Assembly: GCA_044226015.1 (NCBI GenBank)
Contig: JBGAHS010000004.1
Location: 736,001-800,000 of the forward strand
Source: Candidatus Obscuribacteraceae bacterium
GTDB lineage: Bacteria; Cyanobacteriota; Vampirovibrionia; Obscuribacterales; Obscuribacteraceae
Reading direction: 5' to 3'
Length of the DNA: 64,000 bases
In this document: piece after piece, positions 37,584 through 48,493 of the stretch
Layout: each line of letters begins with the position of its first letter
Position numbering within the stretch: position 1 is the stretch's first letter
Notes under the pieces: generated by a model
What the model was told of the DNA's origin: nothing
The model's database searches: none
Seen by the model: only the letters and a program-made list of their open reading frames with translations
Position numbers and translations under genes: made by a program

Positions 37584-37761
37584 TTCTGTCCTTGGTCACG
37601 AAACCTCCACTTAATTTTTGTACTTTTAAGGACAAATTGAGTGTCTTGAGATTAAATTACCAGTTGCGTTGTCAGGAATATGACCGCTTTTGTGTATATA
37701 AATTTTAAGACTCGGGGAAAAGACCGGTGCGGCTGAAGTCTTGGATTCTTTCGGAGCAGGA

Positions 37762-40700
37762 ATGAAAGAAACGAACAACGAATCCACAAAGTCTGAAAAC
37801 CTGGTTCCGCAAGCTAAAGCGGACGAGAGGCTGATTTCTGAGGTTCTTGGCGGGAAGACCGAGCCCGAGTCGACAGGCAAGCATGAAGGTACTGAAGGTG
37901 CCGGTCATTCCTTGTTTCTCAGCGTTATGATGAATAAGGAAGCTGGCTCTGGAAAGTCCGCTGAGACTGTCGCGGACGGAAAAGACGGTAAAGACAAAGA
38001 TTCGAAAACCGGCAAGGATAAGAAGCGTTCATCTGACCCTTCCGAGTCCATCGACGACAGAGAGCATGATAAAGACCCTTCCAGAGAGTCCAGAGAGAAG
38101 GATGAGAAAGCTAAGGACAACGGTCTTGGTTCGGTCGGCCCTAAGCCAACCGAGGTAAAGGCGGATAATTCCGGCGGTTTGCTCGCTCGAGCATCTCTTC
38201 TGGCTATGAATTCGGCGGGCGATTCGATATCTAGTGGCTCAGCAGTAATGAGAGCTGTCGCTTCCGGTGCAGCTGAAATCGCCAGTAAGCATGAGTTCGG
38301 GAAGAATGAAATCGCAGCTAGTCCAAATGAGGGAATTGCTGCTCCGAAAATTGACAATGTAAATATTCCACAAGCATCCGACAAGCATGAAATGCGCCAT
38401 GGATCGGAGATTGATAGCAAGCTGATTGACGTAACAGTTAAGACTGCCGCTCTGGATGTGATGGGAGGCGCTGCGGCATCCATTTCCATTTCAAGGTCTA
38501 TGGCTGCTGATCTCTCTCGAAAAGATGGTGGCGCGCTCGGTGAGCGGAAGATCACTGCACTTGAATCTAGTGTAAGTGCTGCCTTCAATCACGTTGAACC
38601 AAGCTCTAACATGATGAGCCATACGAAGCTCGTGGACGCTGTTGCTCCTGCCTCTGGTCCTGCTGTGGCTTTTCCACCTAAGGTGACTGAGCTAGTCATT
38701 CCTCGCCCGGACACAAAATCGTATAACGAAAATCTTTCGACTCTGCATGTTTCAACACCTAATGTCGGTGATTTCTCTCCCCACATGGTGCCGAAGTCAA
38801 TCGAATCGTCGCCCGCAGCGAATGTATTTGTTCCGCTGAGCAATTTTCATTCTGCAGACATGGGACCGTCTTCGGTGCCGCCAGCTGCTACGCGTGAGCT
38901 TATCGCATATAACTTTCACGACATTCGCGGCAGCGCAAACGATATTCATCCGTCGGTTATCGGTCCAATTATTAGTGGTCCGATTGAGAAACCTCCAGTT
39001 GTAGTGCATGTTCCGACGCCTGATGTGGTTCAGCCCATAGTAAAAGGCGGCACAACGGGCATAGTCGTCAGCGGAAATGGCAGCGACAATTCGTTCGGCA
39101 AAACTCAGATGGCTTTTATTCCCAACTCACAGAAAAACTTCTGGGAGCCAGACCGCCAGGCGGATCAGTACAAGGCTGACAAAGAAGCAGCTGATCGTCG
39201 AACACAAGATGAGAAGGCAAAAGAAGCAAAGGCTGCTGAGCAGAAATTAGCTGAGCAGAAGGCTCTTGAACTTGCAAAAGAGCAGAAGCAGCAAGATCAA
39301 ATAAAAGCACAAGAGCAAGCAAAGTCGCGCGACAAATCAGCTGAGCCAAAGCACAATGCTGAGCTTAAGAATGAACCGGCGAAAAATGAGCCGGGCAAGG
39401 TGCGTGAGGAAACGGTTAACAAAATTCTTGATGCTGCTGTGAAATCATTTCAGGCATCAAAAGCAGGTCATACAATTGATTCCAATAAGATCGAGAGCAT
39501 GACCTTAAATCTTGCGCACCTCAAGAATGCTGAGAATGCTCGCTCGTCTAGTTCTGGCGTGCCAATTTCACAGATAATTTCATTGGCTGGCGGAAAAGAG
39601 CCTGAGAAATCAGGAGTCCACAAGCCCGCAGATGCTGGTCAGCAACAAGCTAAAACTGAGTTGCCGATGGGTCCGGTTGCTTTAACCAAGAATGGTCTGC
39701 CTCAAGAAAAGTCGGCCGCGCCTCTTGAATCAAAAGCTGTGCAAAGCAACCTGGCTCAGTCCTCCGTTGTTTTGAAAGCCATTGAAGCAGGTGCTCGCGG
39801 AACGAACTTAAATATCGAGCAAGCCACTGCAAAAACACAAACAAACAAATCACTTGAGCAAGCTGCTGTTAGTCAACGCACCACTGATGGTATCTTGGGC
39901 GTCAAAAATATCGAGCCTCCCAAGACTCTCTCTGCCACCAAAAATGGTGAATCTAAGTCCGATGTTCTTGTGTCTAAATCAACGGATAGAGTATCTCAAA
40001 TCGCCAAATTTGCAGGCTTGACTGAGGCTAGCGCCAGGCTGTCCAGTGAAGTGAATATCAAGTCTGCTTTGCGTATTAGCCCAGCCGATTTATCTGGAAG
40101 CACTCTTCGTTCATGGATGGGAGACACGGCGAAGTTTAGACCAGATGCTCTGCCACGCGTGACAGAATCTACTCTTGCTGCGCAAAACAGCGCTTTGGGA
40201 CAGCTTAAGATGAACCTCTCTGTTCCTCCAGAGCAACGCAACATACTCAGCGGCAGCAACAAGCAAGTCAATGAACTGAACACGAAAGCTGCTAGCGCTA
40301 ATGCCTCTTCCGAGCTTGCTATCAACGCGGCGAAGAGGCTGAGCGAAGAGCCCCGCTTGCTCGTAAACAAATTGGCAGATGCCTTAAGCAATAGCAAAGC
40401 CTTTGACACATCACTTTCTGCAGCCTCGCCAAGCAACATTGTGCGTGCTAACTCATTGCGTGGCTCTGAGCTTCCAAGTTCTGCAGGATTGGTCAATCTG
40501 GATTACGTAAATCGCTCTCTGGATTCTCTGAAGACGTGGCAAGCTTGGGCTGAGCGAACCCAGGGTTCGCAAAGAAAAGTGAGTTCGAAAAATCGAATTC
40601 CTGAAGATAGAATCGACAGAAGCCTGCTCAAAACTGACTTTTACGACATACCTGAAATCGCCGGTATTGATGCAGAAGACCAGAAACCAGTTGTGCCCAA

Positions 40701-41253
40701 TAAATCTGCTTTCTTGATTGCTCTAATATTGAGCATGTCCGGAGTCAGCCGTCGTCGCGGTTCCACTGTGTCGGCTGAAAATGTGCAAGGACTGTTGAGT
40801 TCTTTCAGCAAAGTTACAGGTTCTGAGGACAACGGAAATTCGTTCAAAAATCTGCATCGTAGAACACACCTCGTTGAACCAGGAGACACCTTGCAATCGA
40901 TAGCTGAGCGCTACTTCAGTGATTCTAGAGTTGCCTGGCTAATTGCCGATTTGAATTCTGCAGCAATCGACGAGCATGGGCTTGACGTTAAGCGAGTAGT
41001 TGAATTGAAGGCAAGGCAATCGCTTGAGCTTCCTGAAGCAGAAGAAGTGCAAGTCTTTCTAGCTGGCATCCCCAGAGATTTCGATATCGATCAGCGGCTG
41101 GTTACTATCGTTAATGACACTATGATTAACATGGAAGTTCTGAAACAATTCCTTGGTCCAATTATCGGCAGTCTGAACGCACAAGACCAATCTGCTGATC
41201 AACAGAAGGAATTGCTTGGAGAATTCACTATCCTCGGAGCCGATTGCGCCTAG
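37762..41253 (+). CDS. Large low-complexity protein with C-terminal LysM domain
   Basis: THLVEPGDTLQSIAERYFSDSRVAWLIADLN LysM motif; long Ser/Lys/Ala-rich regions; GGAGCAGG RBS. Confidence 0.8.
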   Translation: MKETNNESTKSENLVPQAKADERLISEVLGGKTEPESTGKHEGTEGAGHSLFLSVMMNKEAGSGKSAETVADGKDGKDKDSKTGKDKKRSSDPSESIDDREHDKDPSRESREKDEKAKDNGLGSVGPKPTEVKADNSGGLLARASLLAMNSAGDSISSGSAVMRAVASGAAEIASKHEFGKNEIAASPNEGIAAPKIDNVNIPQASDKHEMRHGSEIDSKLIDVTVKTAALDVMGGAAASISISRSMAADLSRKDGGALGERKITALESSVSAAFNHVEPSSNMMSHTKLVDAVAPASGPAVAFPPKVTELVIPRPDTKSYNENLSTLHVSTPNVGDFSPHMVPKSIESSPAANVFVPLSNFHSADMGPSSVPPAATRELIAYNFHDIRGSANDIHPSVIGPIISGPIEKPPVVVHVPTPDVVQPIVKGGTTGIVVSGNGSDNSFGKTQMAFIPNSQKNFWEPDRQADQYKADKEAADRRTQDEKAKEAKAAEQKLAEQKALELAKEQKQQDQIKAQEQAKSRDKSAEPKHNAELKNEPAKNEPGKVREETVNKILDAAVKSFQASKAGHTIDSNKIESMTLNLAHLKNAENARSSSSGVPISQIISLAGGKEPEKSGVHKPADAGQQQAKTELPMGPVALTKNGLPQEKSAAPLESKAVQSNLAQSSVVLKAIEAGARGTNLNIEQATAKTQTNKSLEQAAVSQRTTDGILGVKNIEPPKTLSATKNGESKSDVLVSKSTDRVSQIAKFAGLTEASARLSSEVNIKSALRISPADLSGSTLRSWMGDTAKFRPDALPRVTESTLAAQNSALGQLKMNLSVPPEQRNILSGSNKQVNELNTKAASANASSELAINAAKRLSEEPRLLVNKLADALSNSKAFDTSLSAASPSNIVRANSLRGSELPSSAGLVNLDYVNRSLDSLKTWQAWAERTQGSQRKVSSKNRIPEDRIDRSLLKTDFYDIPEIAGIDAEDQKPVVPNKSAFLIALILSMSGVSRRRGSTVSAENVQGLLSSFSKVTGSEDNGNSFKNLHRRTHLVEPGDTLQSIAERYFSDSRVAWLIADLNSAAIDEHGLDVKRVVELKARQSLELPEAEEVQVFLAGIPRDFDIDQRLVTIVNDTMINMEVLKQFLGPIIGSLNAQDQSADQQKELLGEFTILGADCA

Positions 41254-41283: not shown

Positions 41284-42471
41284 CTAGTTGCGGCTCGACG
41301 CCCGCAGCCCGTCTTGAATGGATGCGCCGAGGTCTTCAATTGATTGTAGCCTTTTGTTGGGATCTTTCCGCATAGCTTGCTGAACTATATTCACCATCCA
41401 TGGTGGTATGTTCAAGTCTGGAGGTATTGGTGCGGGCTCTGCATTCAAGTGCATAGAGAGTGTTTCGATAACATTCTTGCCCAGGAACGGAGGCTCTCCC
41501 GTCAGGCATTCATAGATGATGCAAGCGCAAGAGTAAACATCAGTGCGGCGGTCAACAGCTTGTCCCTGGCATTGTTCGGGAGACATGTACATCGGGCTTC
41601 CAAACACTTCCCCTGTTGAAGTAAGCCTTGCGATGTTGTCGGGGTCATTTACCTTCACCAGTCCAAAGTCCACCACTTTAGCGACAACGTTGCCCTTGTC
41701 GGGCACAAGCATAATATTTGCTGGTTTTAGATCTCGATGGATAATTCCCTTAGAGTGAGCATGACTCAAGCCTTTGCAAATCTGGACGAAAAAGTTGGCA
41801 GTGTCACGCCATGAAAGACGTCCGACGCGCTTTAATAGCTGCTCAAGGCTCTCTCCTTCGAGGAATTCCATCACGATGAATGGAACTCCATTTGCAGAGA
41901 CCATGAAATCTTCAACTGCCACCAGATTCTCGTGAGAGAGTGTGCTCAGCGCTTTAGCCTCACGCTGAAATCTCTGTACCGCAGTATCATCGTTGGCAAG
42001 GTGCGAGTGCAAGAGTTTTATAGCAACTTCTTTTCGACTTGAAATATGTTTGGCAAGAAAAACGTTGCTCAAACCGCCGCTGCCAAGGGGGCTGACTATT
42101 TCGTAGTATTCTGAAAACTTGCTTCCAGGTGCCAGATAATCAGTGATTCTTGAAAGTTCAAGACCATCTTCCGGGCACTTTCCTGAGTAATCATCAGGAA
42201 ATTCTCGCGCACATACCAGGCAAATCTTTTTGTATTTTCTGGGACCAGAGGACTGTGTTTTTGAGGGCGGACGTACATAGGACACTGTGTCTTTCGCACC
42301 CGGTTTGCTTACTTCACCAGTGGGCTTCGCGATTGCATGCACCGAACTCTGATTTTGATCAGTGACTATATTCGTAGCTTCTTCTTTTTTCTTCTTAAGC
42401 GAGATCACCAAAACTATTGCAATTACTACAACTCCAAGCAATCCGGCGATAATCGCTATTGGTAAACTCAA
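41284..42471 (-). CDS. Ser/Thr protein kinase with N-terminal TM anchor and Zn-ribbon-like segment
   Basis: GSGGLS.V, VAIK, HRDLKPAN, DFG, GSPMYMSPEQ, DVYS; CLVC..CPEDG before the kinase domain. Confidence 0.93.
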   Translation of the reverse strand: MSLPIAIIAGLLGVVVIAIVLVISLKKKKEEATNIVTDQNQSSVHAIAKPTGEVSKPGAKDTVSYVRPPSKTQSSGPRKYKKICLVCAREFPDDYSGKCPEDGLELSRITDYLAPGSKFSEYYEIVSPLGSGGLSNVFLAKHISSRKEVAIKLLHSHLANDDTAVQRFQREAKALSTLSHENLVAVEDFMVSANGVPFIVMEFLEGESLEQLLKRVGRLSWRDTANFFVQICKGLSHAHSKGIIHRDLKPANIMLVPDKGNVVAKVVDFGLVKVNDPDNIARLTSTGEVFGSPMYMSPEQCQGQAVDRRTDVYSCACIIYECLTGEPPFLGKNVIETLSMHLNAEPAPIPPDLNIPPWMVNIVQQAMRKDPNKRLQSIEDLGASIQDGLRASSRN

Positions 42472-42518
42472 AATCTTTTCCCTGACACCCCAATCAAATA
42501 TACTACATTAATGAGTGA

Positions 42519-44966
42519 CTAGCTTCGCTTTCTGGCAACTATCTCAAAAACTTGCCCGTGCCGAAATCCAGTTGGAACAATCGGGATCGGACCTTCAACT
42601 TCATTGAACCATTCAAGTTCAAAATCAATAAAAAGCTCTTTTACTTCTGCTTGAGATAAAAATGTCATTCTCTTATTAACTGACCAATCGTCGTTTTTGC
42701 CGAAGAAGTGTCCACTAAACCTTCCGCCTGGCTTGATTGCCCTGCACACATTTTGCCAGAGCCTGCCGAAGTCTTCTGGTGCGCAAAAGGGCAGCGAAAC
42801 ACCAGCGTTTACTAAGCTCACCTCTGGTAACTCGGCGTCCTGCATTTTTCCGAGCCATGTGTCTAGCTGTGCTCGCTCCCAGCTTCCCGTGGCTTCTAAG
42901 AGGCAATTGAGCGCATCCTGGCTTTGATCAACAGCCAGCACCTTCCAGCCCTGCCGGAGCATCTCTTTTGCGTCTCTACCAGAGCCACAACCAAGGTCAA
43001 CTGCATTCTGTGCTTTGTCGAACTTGCTCAATGCGACGATAATCGTGTTATGAGCTTCCTCTCTGGCGACTGCTTTGCTGTATTCGGCCCAAGAGTTCTT
43101 GTATTCAGCAGGTATGCATGCTGTAAAAATCTTCTCGTCATGCAGTTCCTGAAAGCGTTGTATGTAAATTGCAATTGCCTGCACAGAGTTGCGTTGCTCG
43201 TCACTCATTGCTTCTGCAATCAATTGAGAATAAGACCTGCTGCAGCTTCTAGCTCGGTCTATGAGCCATAGCGACAGATGATCTAGTTTCAAAACCCTGG
43301 AAGACCAACTTCTCGGCAGGAAGGCAAAGACTTGTGGAGCTGCTGTAGGAGCAGTGTTGAACTCCGTTCCCGCTTTGATGGCATCGCATATGGTATCAAT
43401 CGAATAGGTGAAACTCTTGATCATCAATTCGGGGTTTACTATTGGCTTAAATGACTTAATTTGTTCTGTTTTTCCGAGATAGATGTCACCAGAAAAGTCG
43501 GTATGTTGATGAATTCTGCCTGCTTCTTGTTTCATTTGTTCGAATTCTGCAAGTTCAAAAATGTAAGGGAAGCTGGCTTGATATTGCTTGCCATGACGGC
43601 GCAGAAATTCGGGAAATCTATCGCCCATTTTCGAATTGTCATTGTAGCGATTTTGAAAAGTGTGAAAAAACTGCAAAAGAATCTCGGACCAGTCGTCCTT
43701 AAGTAAGGCGAAGCACGCAGGGTAGAATCTGCGCATTAATGAATCTCTATTACTATCTCTCAGCCAGGAATAGATGCTGATTGCACGCAGGTCGTATCCA
43801 TCAGTTTCATCTAGCAGCCTGGACGAACGAGGTGCAAATTCAGGTTTGTCCGCTTGTATAGGATCGGTTCCTATAAGTTCGTTCCAGAGAGTAAACCACT
43901 TTCTCTCGTAATTTCTGAGCGTATGCCTCTTAATGTTTGCATCTGTCCCAGGGGGCTCTTGAGAGCTGCTTTTATCTGCCTTTGTTATATTCAAGACTTC
44001 AGGCGCTGCAGCCAGGCTGGCTAGTTCTGCTACTGCAGGTGGTGGCGCTACATCGAACTGTACCTGCGTTGATATTTCGATAGGGCGCTCACGCTCAGGT
44101 TGAATCTGATTGGCTTCAGAATTAGAGTGCTTCTGCCAGATGGACCTGATCTTCTCTAATTCAAACAACAAGTCGGCAAACGAGGGAAAATACTGGTCTC
44201 GTTCAACCATTATGGCTTTAGGTTCAATCATTTTTGAAAGGGCGTGCTCAAGTAAATCGAAAACCGTGTCTGGCACAGGCGAGCCATGTGTATCAATTAT
44301 GCGATTGCCAAATCTTCCAGGACCTGCCAGGTGAATCTGTACAGTTCTTTCAAGCGGTATTCTGTCCAGAAATTCTCTGGCATCAAAACCATGATTTATT
44401 GAATTGACGAAGAGATTGTTGAGATCTAAAAGCAAGCCGCAATCAGCTTCCTCCAGTACTCTGCTAATGAATTCGGCTTCGTCAAAATCGCCAATTGGCA
44501 TCTTTGAGTAGTAAGGAATGTTTTCCAGAATCAGCGGAAATTCAACTGTTTCTTGCGCTTGCTTGACCCGTGCGGCGACATGTTTAACAGCTTCATCAGT
44601 CCATGGTAAAGGGAAGAGATCATTTCCCATCATACCGTCCACGCCGGAAAAACAGAGGTGATCGCTCCACCATTTGAGCTTGAAGTTCTTTGCAAAAAAT
44701 CGGGTCGTCTTCAGCAGTTCTTTGTCGAGTGGGTCAACGCTGCCTATGGAAAGCGAGACGCTGTGCGAAACCAGTGGGAAGTACTCGGCGAAGCTCGCCA
44801 ACCAATTGATGGTGGCATTGTTGGCACGATAATTCTCTGGGGTGAATTCCAGAAAATCGATTGCACTTCTATGTGCGAACGTTTCCTCGCATAGTTCGCC
44901 TCTTAAACCAAGTCCGACTCCAAGTACCGGCATTGCGGACTTCAGTCGCAAGAACTCGCTAACCAT
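42519..44966 (-). CDS. Fusion protein: DUF692/MNIO oxidase + DUF2063-type partner domain + class I SAM-dependent methyltransferase
   Basis: aa ~1-280: GVGLGLR, EFTPENY, SHSVSLSIG, SDHLCF, LENIPYY, LLLDLNN, QIHLAG, IDTHG, VERD. aa ~345-620: IY..L.RFYP....L...W....QFF..FPEFL..ELAEFE. aa ~626-815: VDLGCGSGRD, LAVD, IKPGG.F. Confidence 0.88.
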   Translation of the reverse strand: MVSEFLRLKSAMPVLGVGLGLRGELCEETFAHRSAIDFLEFTPENYRANNATINWLASFAEYFPLVSHSVSLSIGSVDPLDKELLKTTRFFAKNFKLKWWSDHLCFSGVDGMMGNDLFPLPWTDEAVKHVAARVKQAQETVEFPLILENIPYYSKMPIGDFDEAEFISRVLEEADCGLLLDLNNLFVNSINHGFDAREFLDRIPLERTVQIHLAGPGRFGNRIIDTHGSPVPDTVFDLLEHALSKMIEPKAIMVERDQYFPSFADLLFELEKIRSIWQKHSNSEANQIQPERERPIEISTQVQFDVAPPPAVAELASLAAAPEVLNITKADKSSSQEPPGTDANIKRHTLRNYERKWFTLWNELIGTDPIQADKPEFAPRSSRLLDETDGYDLRAISIYSWLRDSNRDSLMRRFYPACFALLKDDWSEILLQFFHTFQNRYNDNSKMGDRFPEFLRRHGKQYQASFPYIFELAEFEQMKQEAGRIHQHTDFSGDIYLGKTEQIKSFKPIVNPELMIKSFTYSIDTICDAIKAGTEFNTAPTAAPQVFAFLPRSWSSRVLKLDHLSLWLIDRARSCSRSYSQLIAEAMSDEQRNSVQAIAIYIQRFQELHDEKIFTACIPAEYKNSWAEYSKAVAREEAHNTIIVALSKFDKAQNAVDLGCGSGRDAKEMLRQGWKVLAVDQSQDALNCLLEATGSWERAQLDTWLGKMQDAELPEVSLVNAGVSLPFCAPEDFGRLWQNVCRAIKPGGRFSGHFFGKNDDWSVNKRMTFLSQAEVKELFIDFELEWFNEVEGPIPIVPTGFRHGQVFEIVARKRS

Positions 44967-45027
44967 TTGTCTTCTCGTCTCGTGCAGCTGAAGAGGCTAT
45001 GCCCTGAAACTCGTGGCTGGAAACGCC

Positions 45028-45456
45028 CTAAATGTCGTTGTAACGATGGCTGAGCCCAGCACGAAGCGGTTTGTTTTCGTCAGTTCTTTCATTGCGGCGC
45101 GGTGGGCGCTCGTCGCTGCCTGTTCCTATTCTAAGTGGCGGTAACTTATCGTCAGTTTTAGGAGGTTCCGGTTGTGTCGCTGACTTAGCTTCAGTCCCTT
45201 GAGCAGGTTTAGCCTCTGGCTTTGCTGGAAAAGCTGGTATTGACCATGAAAATTGTGGAAGAACGTCAGTCTTGCTCTCTTGCTTGTTTTCAGAAGGCTT
45301 TGGACGGTTCGAACGATCTTTGAACAAATCTCGGAGATGTCCAGAGCCGGTTTCACTTGAGGACTCAGTTCTAGCGGGCTTGCCCCATGCTTCTGCGGCC
45401 AGTCCTGTGGGCGCTTCGCTGGTCTTATTTCCGCCAAAATTGAAATTTGAGTCCAT
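45028..45456 (-). CDS. 142-aa disordered protein; candidate RiPP precursor/substrate of the MNIO fusion
   Basis: Strong GGAGG RBS; same strand and 61 nt upstream of the MNIO gene; Pro/Glu/Lys/Ser-rich, no Cys, ends in GLSHRYNDI. Confidence 0.65.
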   Translation of the reverse strand: MDSNFNFGGNKTSEAPTGLAAEAWGKPARTESSSETGSGHLRDLFKDRSNRPKPSENKQESKTDVLPQFSWSIPAFPAKPEAKPAQGTEAKSATQPEPPKTDDKLPPLRIGTGSDERPPRRNERTDENKPLRAGLSHRYNDI

Positions 45457-45591
45457 ACTAAACCTCCGAGGGGTTATATTTTACCCTACGCAGCCCATTG
45501 GTGACCCTTAATTGGAAATATCCGGATATCCAAGGTTTTGGACAGAATGACAAAATTTGCTAGCATAAACAAAGTTATATCTTGAGACCCC

Positions 45592-46629
45592 ATGGAAGTT
45601 ATTCGACGCTTTTATTCGCCACTGTTAGCTTTTTCGGTTTTTTTGCTGGGTATCGCACCAGTTTCGTCCACATTCGCGCTCGACCATAGTGATGCAAGGA
45701 AAATGGCTAATACCTCTGCTGCCAGTTCGTCGAAAGAGAATAGAGGCGCAGAGAGCGTTGCTACAGAGCCGGAAAAGTCCGTTGACTTAAGCACTGTGAC
45801 AAAGTGGATAAAAGACCATCACTACAAACAAGCTGAGTCTGCCCTTACCGCAATGATTAAGGCGAAGCCTGCTGATGCGGTCGTGCATCAAACCTATGGG
45901 CTACTTTTGCGCGAAACAGGGCAAATCGACAAAGCTTTAAGTGAGTATGCCAGAGCTGCTGAACTGGATGCGTCGAGCTCTGTTCCTTTAATAGCGCTCT
46001 CGGAACTGTCGCTCAAACAACTAGATCTTGATGGCAGCTTGAGTTATGCAGAGCAAGCCGTTGCCTGTGAGCCCGCCTCTAAAGCAGCGAGAACAGCTTT
46101 AATTGAGGCGTTGCTTCAGAGTGAACAAATCTCAGAGGCAGAACGTCAGCTCAAGTACATTCAAGAAAAGGATTTGCGAACTCCGTACATGGAGATGCTT
46201 CAATATAGATTGATGCAGAAGAAGGGTGATTACCTATCTGCTAGAAAGCATATGCAAGCGGCACTCGAGTCGCCGGGTAATGAAGTTCCTGTGTCGTTGC
46301 GTCTTGAGCAATCTGACTTGCTTCAAACTCTGGGCGAATATGCTGCTGCAAAACGTGAGCTGGAGAAAATTCTTGCTGGTGATCCTGATCTACTTGAGGG
46401 GCGGCTAAAGTTGGCTCGCCTTATGGAAACACAGTTTCATGATTACGCAGCAGCAATGCAAAATTACAATGAGGCACTCAAGTTAGATCCACTGTCGGCA
46501 GCTGCCATGGCTGGAATCGAACGCTGTCAGACAAAACGGCAAAATCTGGCTCTGCAACTGAAAATTTGCTTTCGTGATTTCTGGGCTTGGTTAGATGCCC
46601 AATCACGCTCAAATAGCGATAAAAAGTAG
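45592..46629 (+). CDS. Exported TPR protein
   Basis: Signal peptide; TPRs (VHQTYGLLL..GQIDKALSEY, GRLKLARLME..DYAAAMQNYNEALKLDP). Confidence 0.85.
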   Translation: MEVIRRFYSPLLAFSVFLLGIAPVSSTFALDHSDARKMANTSAASSSKENRGAESVATEPEKSVDLSTVTKWIKDHHYKQAESALTAMIKAKPADAVVHQTYGLLLRETGQIDKALSEYARAAELDASSSVPLIALSELSLKQLDLDGSLSYAEQAVACEPASKAARTALIEALLQSEQISEAERQLKYIQEKDLRTPYMEMLQYRLMQKKGDYLSARKHMQAALESPGNEVPVSLRLEQSDLLQTLGEYAAAKRELEKILAGDPDLLEGRLKLARLMETQFHDYAAAMQNYNEALKLDPLSAAAMAGIERCQTKRQNLALQLKICFRDFWAWLDAQSRSNSDKK

Positions 46630-46635
46630 TTTGCT

Positions 46636-46917
46636 CTATTGTAGTCGCGAGCGACGTGTTGCCTTTTGTTCTGGGCAGAATGGCAGCGTTCCGTCTTGGG
46701 GAATTAGCATTACACATCTGCATGCTTCTTCTGGAATGAGTGCAATGCATTTTGCATCAAGCTCTGGCGCAAGCTTACTCAAATCTGGCATAACTCTGGG
46801 GTTTCTGCTGTTCTCCATAAGCAAATCAAGCGCTTGTTGAATCAATGCGTTTTCTAGATCACCAACGCCCACTCTTTCTGAATGCTCTCTTTCTGAGACT
46901 CTAGATTCTTGCTGCAT
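46636..46917 (-). CDS. Hypothetical protein
   Basis: 93-aa ORF from ATG 46917 with an AGGGG RBS-like sequence; no recognisable motif. Confidence 0.5.
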   Translation of the reverse strand: MQQESRVSEREHSERVGVGDLENALIQQALDLLMENSRNPRVMPDLSKLAPELDAKCIALIPEEACRCVMLIPQDGTLPFCPEQKATRRSRLQ

Positions 46918-47065
46918 TTTTCTGAACCCCTTTCCCTGCAAATGGATTTTGCTGGAAATTAACCCGTGTTCATATCTACACGCGAAGCGAAATTTGTAGA
47001 CAGTAAAACGCTTGTCCCGCAAGGATTTAAGCTGGGCCGCTAATTAATTGAATGATTCCCTGAAC

Positions 47066-47105
47066 GCAAAAATGGAGGGCTAAACTTTCAGCACCTCCAT
47101 TCTTT
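47066..47105 (-). terminator. Intrinsic terminator after purA
   Basis: Minus strand AATGGAGG(T)GCT..AGC-CCTCCATT followed by a T-run. Confidence 0.75.
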
Positions 47106-47140
47106 TGTATTGGATCTGTTGTTTGTGATTCAGCCCGAGC

Positions 47141-48493
<1,353 letters not shown>

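Follow-up and report, generated by a model that had tools for sequence, protein, structure and literature searches.

A one-chain MNIO, partner and methyltransferase fusion from Obscuribacterales as a candidate maturase of cytoplasmic cysteine-repeat proteins

Research on MNIOs brings new peptide chemistry to light at a fast pace. The described systems closest to the one reported here are those of captophorin, oxazolin and bufferin (HvfABC, FonABC and BufABC; PMC13097082, PMC12452194), in which an MNIO and an HvfC-type partner, composed of DUF2063 and a recognition element (RRE) for peptides that are made on ribosomes and modified after translation (RiPPs), act on a cysteine-repeat substrate. 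Two further systems yield a methylated MNIO product. In the aminopyruvatide pathway, the product of ApyHI is handed to a methyltransferase dependent on S-adenosylmethionine (SAM), ApyS, an MppJ-like C-methyltransferase that acts on an Asp-derived keto acid (PMC10635010). In the chryseobasin system, an S-methylated product was seen with ChrH/DybH on the motif CPACGMG, but ChrH lacks a SAM domain and its product is reported to become methylated spontaneously (PMC13733907); the sole S-methylation reported now appears to be non-enzymatic. Here, we analyse a 64,000-nucleotide stretch of the genome of a Candidatus Obscuribacteraceae bacterium (GCA_044226015.1, contig JBGAHS010000004.1, positions 736,001 to 800,000; hereafter the window). 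In this window, one gene encoding 815 amino acids (aa), at 42519..44966 on the minus strand, joins an MNIO, a DUF2063/RRE partner and a SAM methyltransferase. Our proposal, which we hold tentatively and a little short of even confidence, is that this single chain would mature cytoplasmic Cys-repeat proteins by converting Cys to 5-thiooxazole and then S-methylating it.

The locus shares with the captophorin, oxazolin and bufferin systems the closest MNIO models, the partner type and the Cys-repeat substrate. It differs from them in that enzyme, partner and methyltransferase form one chain, that no DoxX gene was seen nearby and that scores stay under the curated cut-offs; its precursors also differ, being without a Sec signal, 160-370 aa long, and endowed with a helical leader and a small residue after Cys. 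Putative precursors without signal (122-293 aa, 8-21 Cys) encoded next to an MNIO are known as adjamnio-I (PMC12452194, Table 2), but in their published description they go with a PME-type 2 partner encoded apart and lack a methyltransferase; some overlap with the precursors reported here is possible. In the literature searched, which did not extend to the Fig. S3 alignments of PMC12452194, bioRxiv supplements or subscription journals, we found no description of the triple fusion, as the sequence-only reading had supposed, nor of its precursor family. Two named accessions of the fusion, like their neighbours, do not appear in the supplementary lists of PMC12452194, nor do the accessions occur in the supplements of PMC13097082, as far as these were accessible. 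The accessible text of PMC12452194, a survey of the MNIO landscape, mentions MNIO-nitroreductase fusions, uses "methyl" once and "Obscuribacter" never. None of the papers searched yielded a methyltransferase dedicated to a Cys-derived MNIO product.

The gene is a genuine one-chain MNIO, DUF2063/RRE partner and TehB-like SAM methyltransferase, with all three folds confirmed. The 815-aa open reading frame (ORF) has no break, as had been read from the sequence alone, and is supported by Pfam and NCBIfam matches, an AlphaFold2 model and an independent contig. Indeed, the gene and its surroundings (42400-47200) lie in a single contig of run X2, from an independent study, with 6 differences; this spanning contig and the recurrence of the fusion in other genomes rule out an assembly artefact. 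Strain differences within the gene are all synonymous (9/9), 8 of them coming from low-depth contigs of one run. The model has a mean predicted local distance difference test (pLDDT) score of 80.8, and the Pro/Ala-rich linker noted earlier (aa 283-340; 43947..44120, minus strand) is disordered, with pLDDT below 50; mean identity among orthologues falls to 20% over aa 283-345. In an alignment of 24 fusions, from which P0022 was left out, no variation occurs in the residues of the iron-site motifs or in the SAM motif.

The N-terminal domain (aa 16-277; 44136..44921, minus strand) belongs to the MNIO superfamily, as its Pfam score, TIM-barrel fold and conserved ligands indicate: it matches PF05114 (DUF692) with 289 bits (Pfam cut-off 25), and H68, H103, E148, D181, N184, H212, D225, H227, E255 and D257 are found in 24/24 aligned fusions, so that the full set of metal-ligand motifs first seen by eye is intact. 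Its closest folds are TglH (Z 29.3) and 3BWW (Z 26.6), with sugar-isomerase barrels only at Z of about 17; together with the PF05114 score, this rules out a xylose-isomerase-like barrel. Judged by motif, N184/D225/H227 would correspond to N175/D242/H244 of HvfB (ligands taken from 10.64898/2026.07.17.739211), and the Asp that matches the FonB base D249 (PMC13097082) is retained. NCBIfam scores are 254 bits for HvfB (cut-off 360), 245 for BufB (cut-off 310), 123 for ApyH (cut-off 400), 58 for ChrH and 46 for MbnB, all below cut-off. By these comparisons, the oxidase appears nearest to the thiooxazole-forming HvfB and BufB and to 3BWW, and its predicted function is iron binding and peptide oxidation.

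The middle domain (aa 346-620; 43107..43931, minus strand) had been described as DUF2063-like and helical, and this assignment holds. The Pfam DUF2063 match is weak (aa 394-455, 20.7 bits, under the cut-off of 27.2), while the NCBIfam HvfC partner model matches aa 388-614 with an E value of 3e-11 and recognises 26/28 aligned partner domains. Folded alone, the domain reaches a pLDDT of 89 and resembles NGO1945/3DEE (Z 15.4, 198 aligned residues) and TglI (Z 13.4), which are the only chains above Z 8 among 48,161. These models indicate a DUF2063 and RRE partner (PME type 1) present as a fused domain.

The C-terminal domain (aa 623-815; 42522..43100, minus strand) is a class I SAM methyltransferase, in line with the initial assignment: it has the GxGxG motif, an acidic residue after strand 2 and a Rossmann-like fold. 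Pfam Methyltransf_25 and TehB models match aa 636-790, D657, G659, G661 and G663 are present in 29/29 fused copies and D680 in 28/29, and the nearest solved fold is the tellurite methyltransferase TehB (Z 21.9; 21-22 overall).

The search for this architecture elsewhere was productive. A protein database search returned 36 proteins; 25 of them, counting the query, are complete triple fusions, and those that bear a name are of Obscuribacterales type. Among 107 genomes of the order Obscuribacterales, 10 encode the fusion, complete in nine (this genome, G000, and G063, G068, G069, G079, G081, G087, G091 and G098) and split across two contig ends in G096. Five more genomes, from about three lineages (G020, G024, G029, G066 and G082), have an MNIO-partner fusion with a separate methyltransferase gene within two genes. 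The 15 best methyltransferase matches in the order are exactly those of these 10 and 5 genomes, all MNIO-linked; of the 12 weaker matches, 9 loci were viewed and showed no MNIO nearby, in most cases within only 1.5 kb. No full-length fusion was found among 45 loci outside records named Obscuribacterales, Melainabacteria or SZAS.

In a tree of 69 oxidase domains, rooted only at the midpoint and containing long branches, the fusions group in a single clade (SH-aLRT 97), while the adjacent-gene systems of G024/G029 and G066 fall outside it (90). Together, these sit among the ordinary single-domain MNIOs of the order, which share the ERDQ motif. The methyltransferase tree, like the former a quick search without bootstrap, contains two well-supported fused clades and leaves the adjacent copies unresolved; the methyltransferase was possibly recruited to MNIO systems more than once. 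A path from a secreted copper-peptide system to an MNIO-partner fusion with a signal-less precursor, then to an adjacent and finally a fused methyltransferase, fits these data but is not proven.

Since two-domain MNIO-partner fusions are common in the order, one may ask whether the methyltransferase is a passenger, fused by chance from a neighbouring gene to an enzyme that makes unmethylated thiooxazoles. The methyltransferase family is indeed common alone, and the domain was lost in one lineage. We nonetheless regard this as very unlikely: the link between MNIO and methyltransferase recurs across 15 genomes with varied gene orders, either as a fusion or as separate genes, and the methyltransferase domain shows a higher mean identity among orthologues (53%) than the partner domain (45%), with invariant SAM motifs.

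What, then, does the enzyme act upon? The initial reading held that a Cys-rich secreted precursor and DoxX were both missing. The latter part stands, as no DoxX was found among the 6 neighbours of the fusion gene scanned with Pfam; the former must be amended, since a Cys-rich precursor family is present that appears to be devoid of a Sec signal peptide. At orthologous fusion loci, one or two genes for Cys-repeat proteins of 160-370 aa usually lie just upstream. These proteins carry a helical leader, D-L-x-x-x-L-I-x-Q-A-L-x-L, and after it imperfect repeats that each contain a single Cys. Their N-terminal hydropathy (best 11 residues) does not exceed 1.34 across 17 precursors, as compared with 2.64 in a secreted precursor on contig C10 of this genome, a crude test. 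None of 11 precursors reached an NCBIfam cut-off, and no DUF2282, EGKCG or Cys-Lys precursor family or repeat was recognised.

A Cys-repeat protein of the family is encoded in 15/15 genomes with a fused or adjacent methyltransferase, either beside the enzyme or, as in G069, in trans. The leader profile matched 19/107 genomes at E up to 0.01; below 1e-5, matches were restricted to genomes with a methyltransferase-linked system, most of them being training sequences. One match outside the training set, in G079, turned out to be a Cys-repeat protein; the other end of this protein is found directly upstream of the G079 fusion. The precursor profile gave 2 matches in the protein database and, across 251 genomes of the class, none outside the family; in the ESM Atlas, no usable match to the precursor turned up. 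On this sequence evidence, the Cys-repeat family is very probably the substrate of the fusion enzyme.

In the genome studied here, the main substrate is probably made in trans. A first core-motif expression found no match in it, and a periodic-Cys scan retrieved, amid many off-frame repeats, a full-length paralogue of 345 aa with 11 Cys and the same leader, encoded by a lone gene outside the window (C1:887044-888081, plus strand; L057:7045-8082). Within the window, a gene for a 93-aa protein with 4 Cys (46636..46917, minus strand), recognised by leader match and synteny, carries the leader and two core-like motifs (KCIALIP and RCVMLIP) and occupies the position of a 12-Cys precursor gene in the same-genus genome G063; it is probably a shrunken second substrate. 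At a low threshold, the leader gave 15 N-terminal vs 5 internal matches in 5320 ORFs, which lends weak support to a possible genome-wide signal. Beside these precursors, we observed at L120:943-1650 (G094) and L123:1000-1659 (G089) proteins with the leader and an Ala/Gly-rich middle that lack Cys cores, in loci resembling those of G087/G091. No MNIO was seen within about 1.5 kb of them, and a joint loss of cores and enzyme is possible.

The sequence-only reading had instead designated as candidate substrate the product of a low-complexity ORF of 142 aa (45028..45456, minus strand), which lies between fusion and precursor. This protein has no Cys, no homologue at the fetched loci or elsewhere in the genome, and a leader score of -9; we reject it as the likely substrate. 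Its gene is adjacent to the fusion and co-oriented, and the ApyH/ApyS precedent (PMC10635010) could thus suggest an aminopyruvatide-like reaction on a non-Cys residue of this product followed by C-methylation. Such chemistry is hardly credible here, as no homologue of the gene was found at any orthologous locus, the ApyH score is half that of HvfB, and ApyS resembles MppJ (PMC10635010) whereas the domain in the fusion resembles TehB. The proposed analogy with aminopyruvatide is altogether weak, because HvfB and BufB score above ApyH and none of the 17 precursor sequences has a conserved C-terminal Asp, their C-termini not being conserved. The pathway also differs in its separate genes, its C-terminal Asp substrate and the involvement of P450 and B12-rSAM enzymes (PMC10635010).

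The repeats themselves differ according to the enzyme. In the 17 methyltransferase-linked precursors, 137/153 Cys are followed by A, S, V, T, G or I and 1/153 by K or R, with a median spacing mostly of 15-27; in four precursors (two of them partial) of methyltransferase-free MNIO-partner systems, 52/58 Cys are followed by K or R at a spacing of 9. These counts include repeats within a protein and related genomes and are not independent events. An informative case is that of G020/G082, where the oxidase clusters, if weakly supported, with Cys-Lys systems but comes with an adjacent methyltransferase and 13/13 small-residue cores. In these sequences, core type thus appears to track the presence of the methyltransferase. 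The two-domain fusions without methyltransferase of G063, G065, G068 and G069 (L049:8115-10993, L088:4317-7475, L092 and L103) are themselves undescribed, and their signal-less precursors bear as many as 25 Cys-Lys repeats, spaced 9 residues apart. Another, in G063:C127 (L089:5287-7059), lacks several iron-site motifs and is possibly inactive.

The methyltransferase falls into a distinct and as yet uncharacterised family marked by NAxxSLPFC and GHFFGxxDxW motifs. Within it, H639 is present in 28/29 fused and 3/3 adjacent copies vs 21/146 stand-alone copies, and H753 in all MNIO-linked copies vs 53/146. In fused copies, a loop has been remodelled (G792-P793, G804) and a conserved Trp has become G804, a change that would suit a larger substrate. 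In other bacteria, relatives are fused to an M19 membrane dipeptidase (many proteins) or to DinB_2 (P0191-P0204, P0066, P0085), suggesting a pathway of thiol-conjugate breakdown. DinB_2 proteins are thiol transferases. Gliotoxin biosynthesis uses both a dipeptidase and an S-methyltransferase to handle thiols (PMC10086836). Stand-alone cyanobacterial relatives (L200, L201, L203, L204) lie within molybdate-type ABC transporter loci, at 4/9 loci read, one of them also beside TauE. A metagenome scan returned only 2 unrelated methyltransferase loci. Altogether, the TehB fold, the M19 and DinB_2 fusions and the transporter and TauE neighbours point to sulfur or chalcogen acceptors.

These same features would also accommodate an unmethylated poly-thiooxazole sponge for metals or metalloids, with the methyltransferase acting like TehB on captured tellurite, selenite or small thiols and the fusion channelling detoxification. 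TehB being the nearest solved fold, the transporter genes beside stand-alone kin and the fact that the domain can be lost all speak for this. Identity to TehB is however about 20%, NCBIfam TehB scores are far under the cut-offs (39 bits vs 303, and 28.5 vs 218), the MNIO-linked copies bear a signature of their own, and core sequence shifts with the presence of the methyltransferase. We consider a TehB-like role unlikely.

For the oxidation step, the top HvfB and BufB scores and the retained FonB-base Asp make conversion of Cys to 5-thiooxazole the default inference, and thiooxazole formation is likely on this basis. For the second step, the sulfur or chalcogen acceptors suggested by kin, the H639/H753/G804 signature and the ready alkylation of 5-thiooxazole thiols (10.64898/2026.06.05.730506) favour S-methylation of the thiooxazole, to which we give somewhat better than even credence. 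In the mechanism we propose, the RRE-containing middle domain would bind the conserved leader, the di-iron site of the MNIO would oxidise each repeat Cys to 5-thiooxazole as do HvfB, BufB and FonB, and the tethered methyltransferase would place a SAM methyl on the aromatic thiol so formed, which would leave the chain with a series of 5-(methylthio)oxazoles. Copper binding by a putative 5-thiooxazole product would follow captophorin and bufferin. More speculatively, the modified protein might serve as a redox-quiet cytoplasmic buffer for soft metals, or as a signal, with its origin in the system for secreted copper-binding peptides that these bacteria possess. Among the shared neighbours listed by clustering, no conserved protease or transporter stood out, and the product may thus remain a full-length cytoplasmic protein.

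The same enzyme and substrates could support other chemistry, with the methyltransferase trapping an MNIO intermediate, a thioaldehyde or enethiol, as S-methyl enamide or thioaminal, or methylating N or a neighbouring residue. Cys-modifying MNIOs are proposed to share a thioaldehyde intermediate, from which their products diverge (PMC13733907). Likewise, N- and O-methyltransferases occur among TehB-like folds, the domain weakly matches a daptide methyltransferase model (E 1.6e-9), and the loop is remodelled in fused copies. We place this alternative on the unlikely side, as the oxidase has the ERDQ motif in common with the resident secreted-peptide MNIOs, sits with them in the tree and, across 163 cores, because Cys is the only conserved methylatable residue, offers no other obvious target.

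Several observations weigh against thiooxazole formation followed by S-methylation in a dedicated system, in addition to the dependence among the core counts. MNIOs make several different products from Cys (PMC13733907), and the oxidase falls short of the HvfB (360) and BufB (310) cut-offs. Methylation would cost the thiolate its copper binding, which makes the purpose of the product hard to explain. Members of the methyltransferase family are common in the absence of MNIOs (1103 representatives at E up to 1e-10; 20/300 other genomes of the phylum), and no single clade is recovered for the fused and adjacent copies. Proteins of G062 and P0023-P0025, nested within the fusion clade, end after the partner domain without a methyltransferase, and G062 (70% complete) encodes an orphan protein with two small-residue cores, found after the core count and left out of the 137/153 tally. 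Finally, the same leader stands on Cys-poor proteins of G089, G094 and G063:C215, and the local precursor (46636-46917) is very short.

If the proposal that Cys is converted to S-methylated thiooxazole is right, a peptide modification not yet described would result, with up to about 19 S-methylated thiooxazoles per repeat protein; this might be the first enzymatic S-methylation of an MNIO product and a new RiPP class confined to Obscuribacterales, claims for which the sequences leave us slightly under even odds. It would also define a cytoplasmic, signal-less branch of thiooxazole peptides and give a large orphan methyltransferase family a function and its first substrate. Enzyme, partner, tailoring domain and named substrates are held in two genes and are directly testable in E. 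coli, and the protein offers a natural single-chain MNIO for structure and engineering work.

Around the fusion, promoter and terminator scans gave results at about chance level. A TPR protein gene (45592..46629, plus strand; Pfam), syntenic only in the same-genus G063, is probably a bystander. Directly downstream of the fusion lies a gene for a membrane-anchored Ser/Thr kinase (41284-42471, minus strand), with synteny again only in G063, and beyond it one for a 1170-aa low-complexity protein (37741-41253, plus strand) with a weak C-terminal LysM match and no other family. Elsewhere in this genome, C10:12098-14273 holds an ordinary operon for a secreted Cys-Lys repeat precursor, an MNIO and a partner, of which similar loci occur across the family. 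Further MNIO genes are located at C4:277738-280109, after a membrane protein with a Cys/Gly-rich tail that we take to be TIGR04222-like, and at C8:703858-705147.

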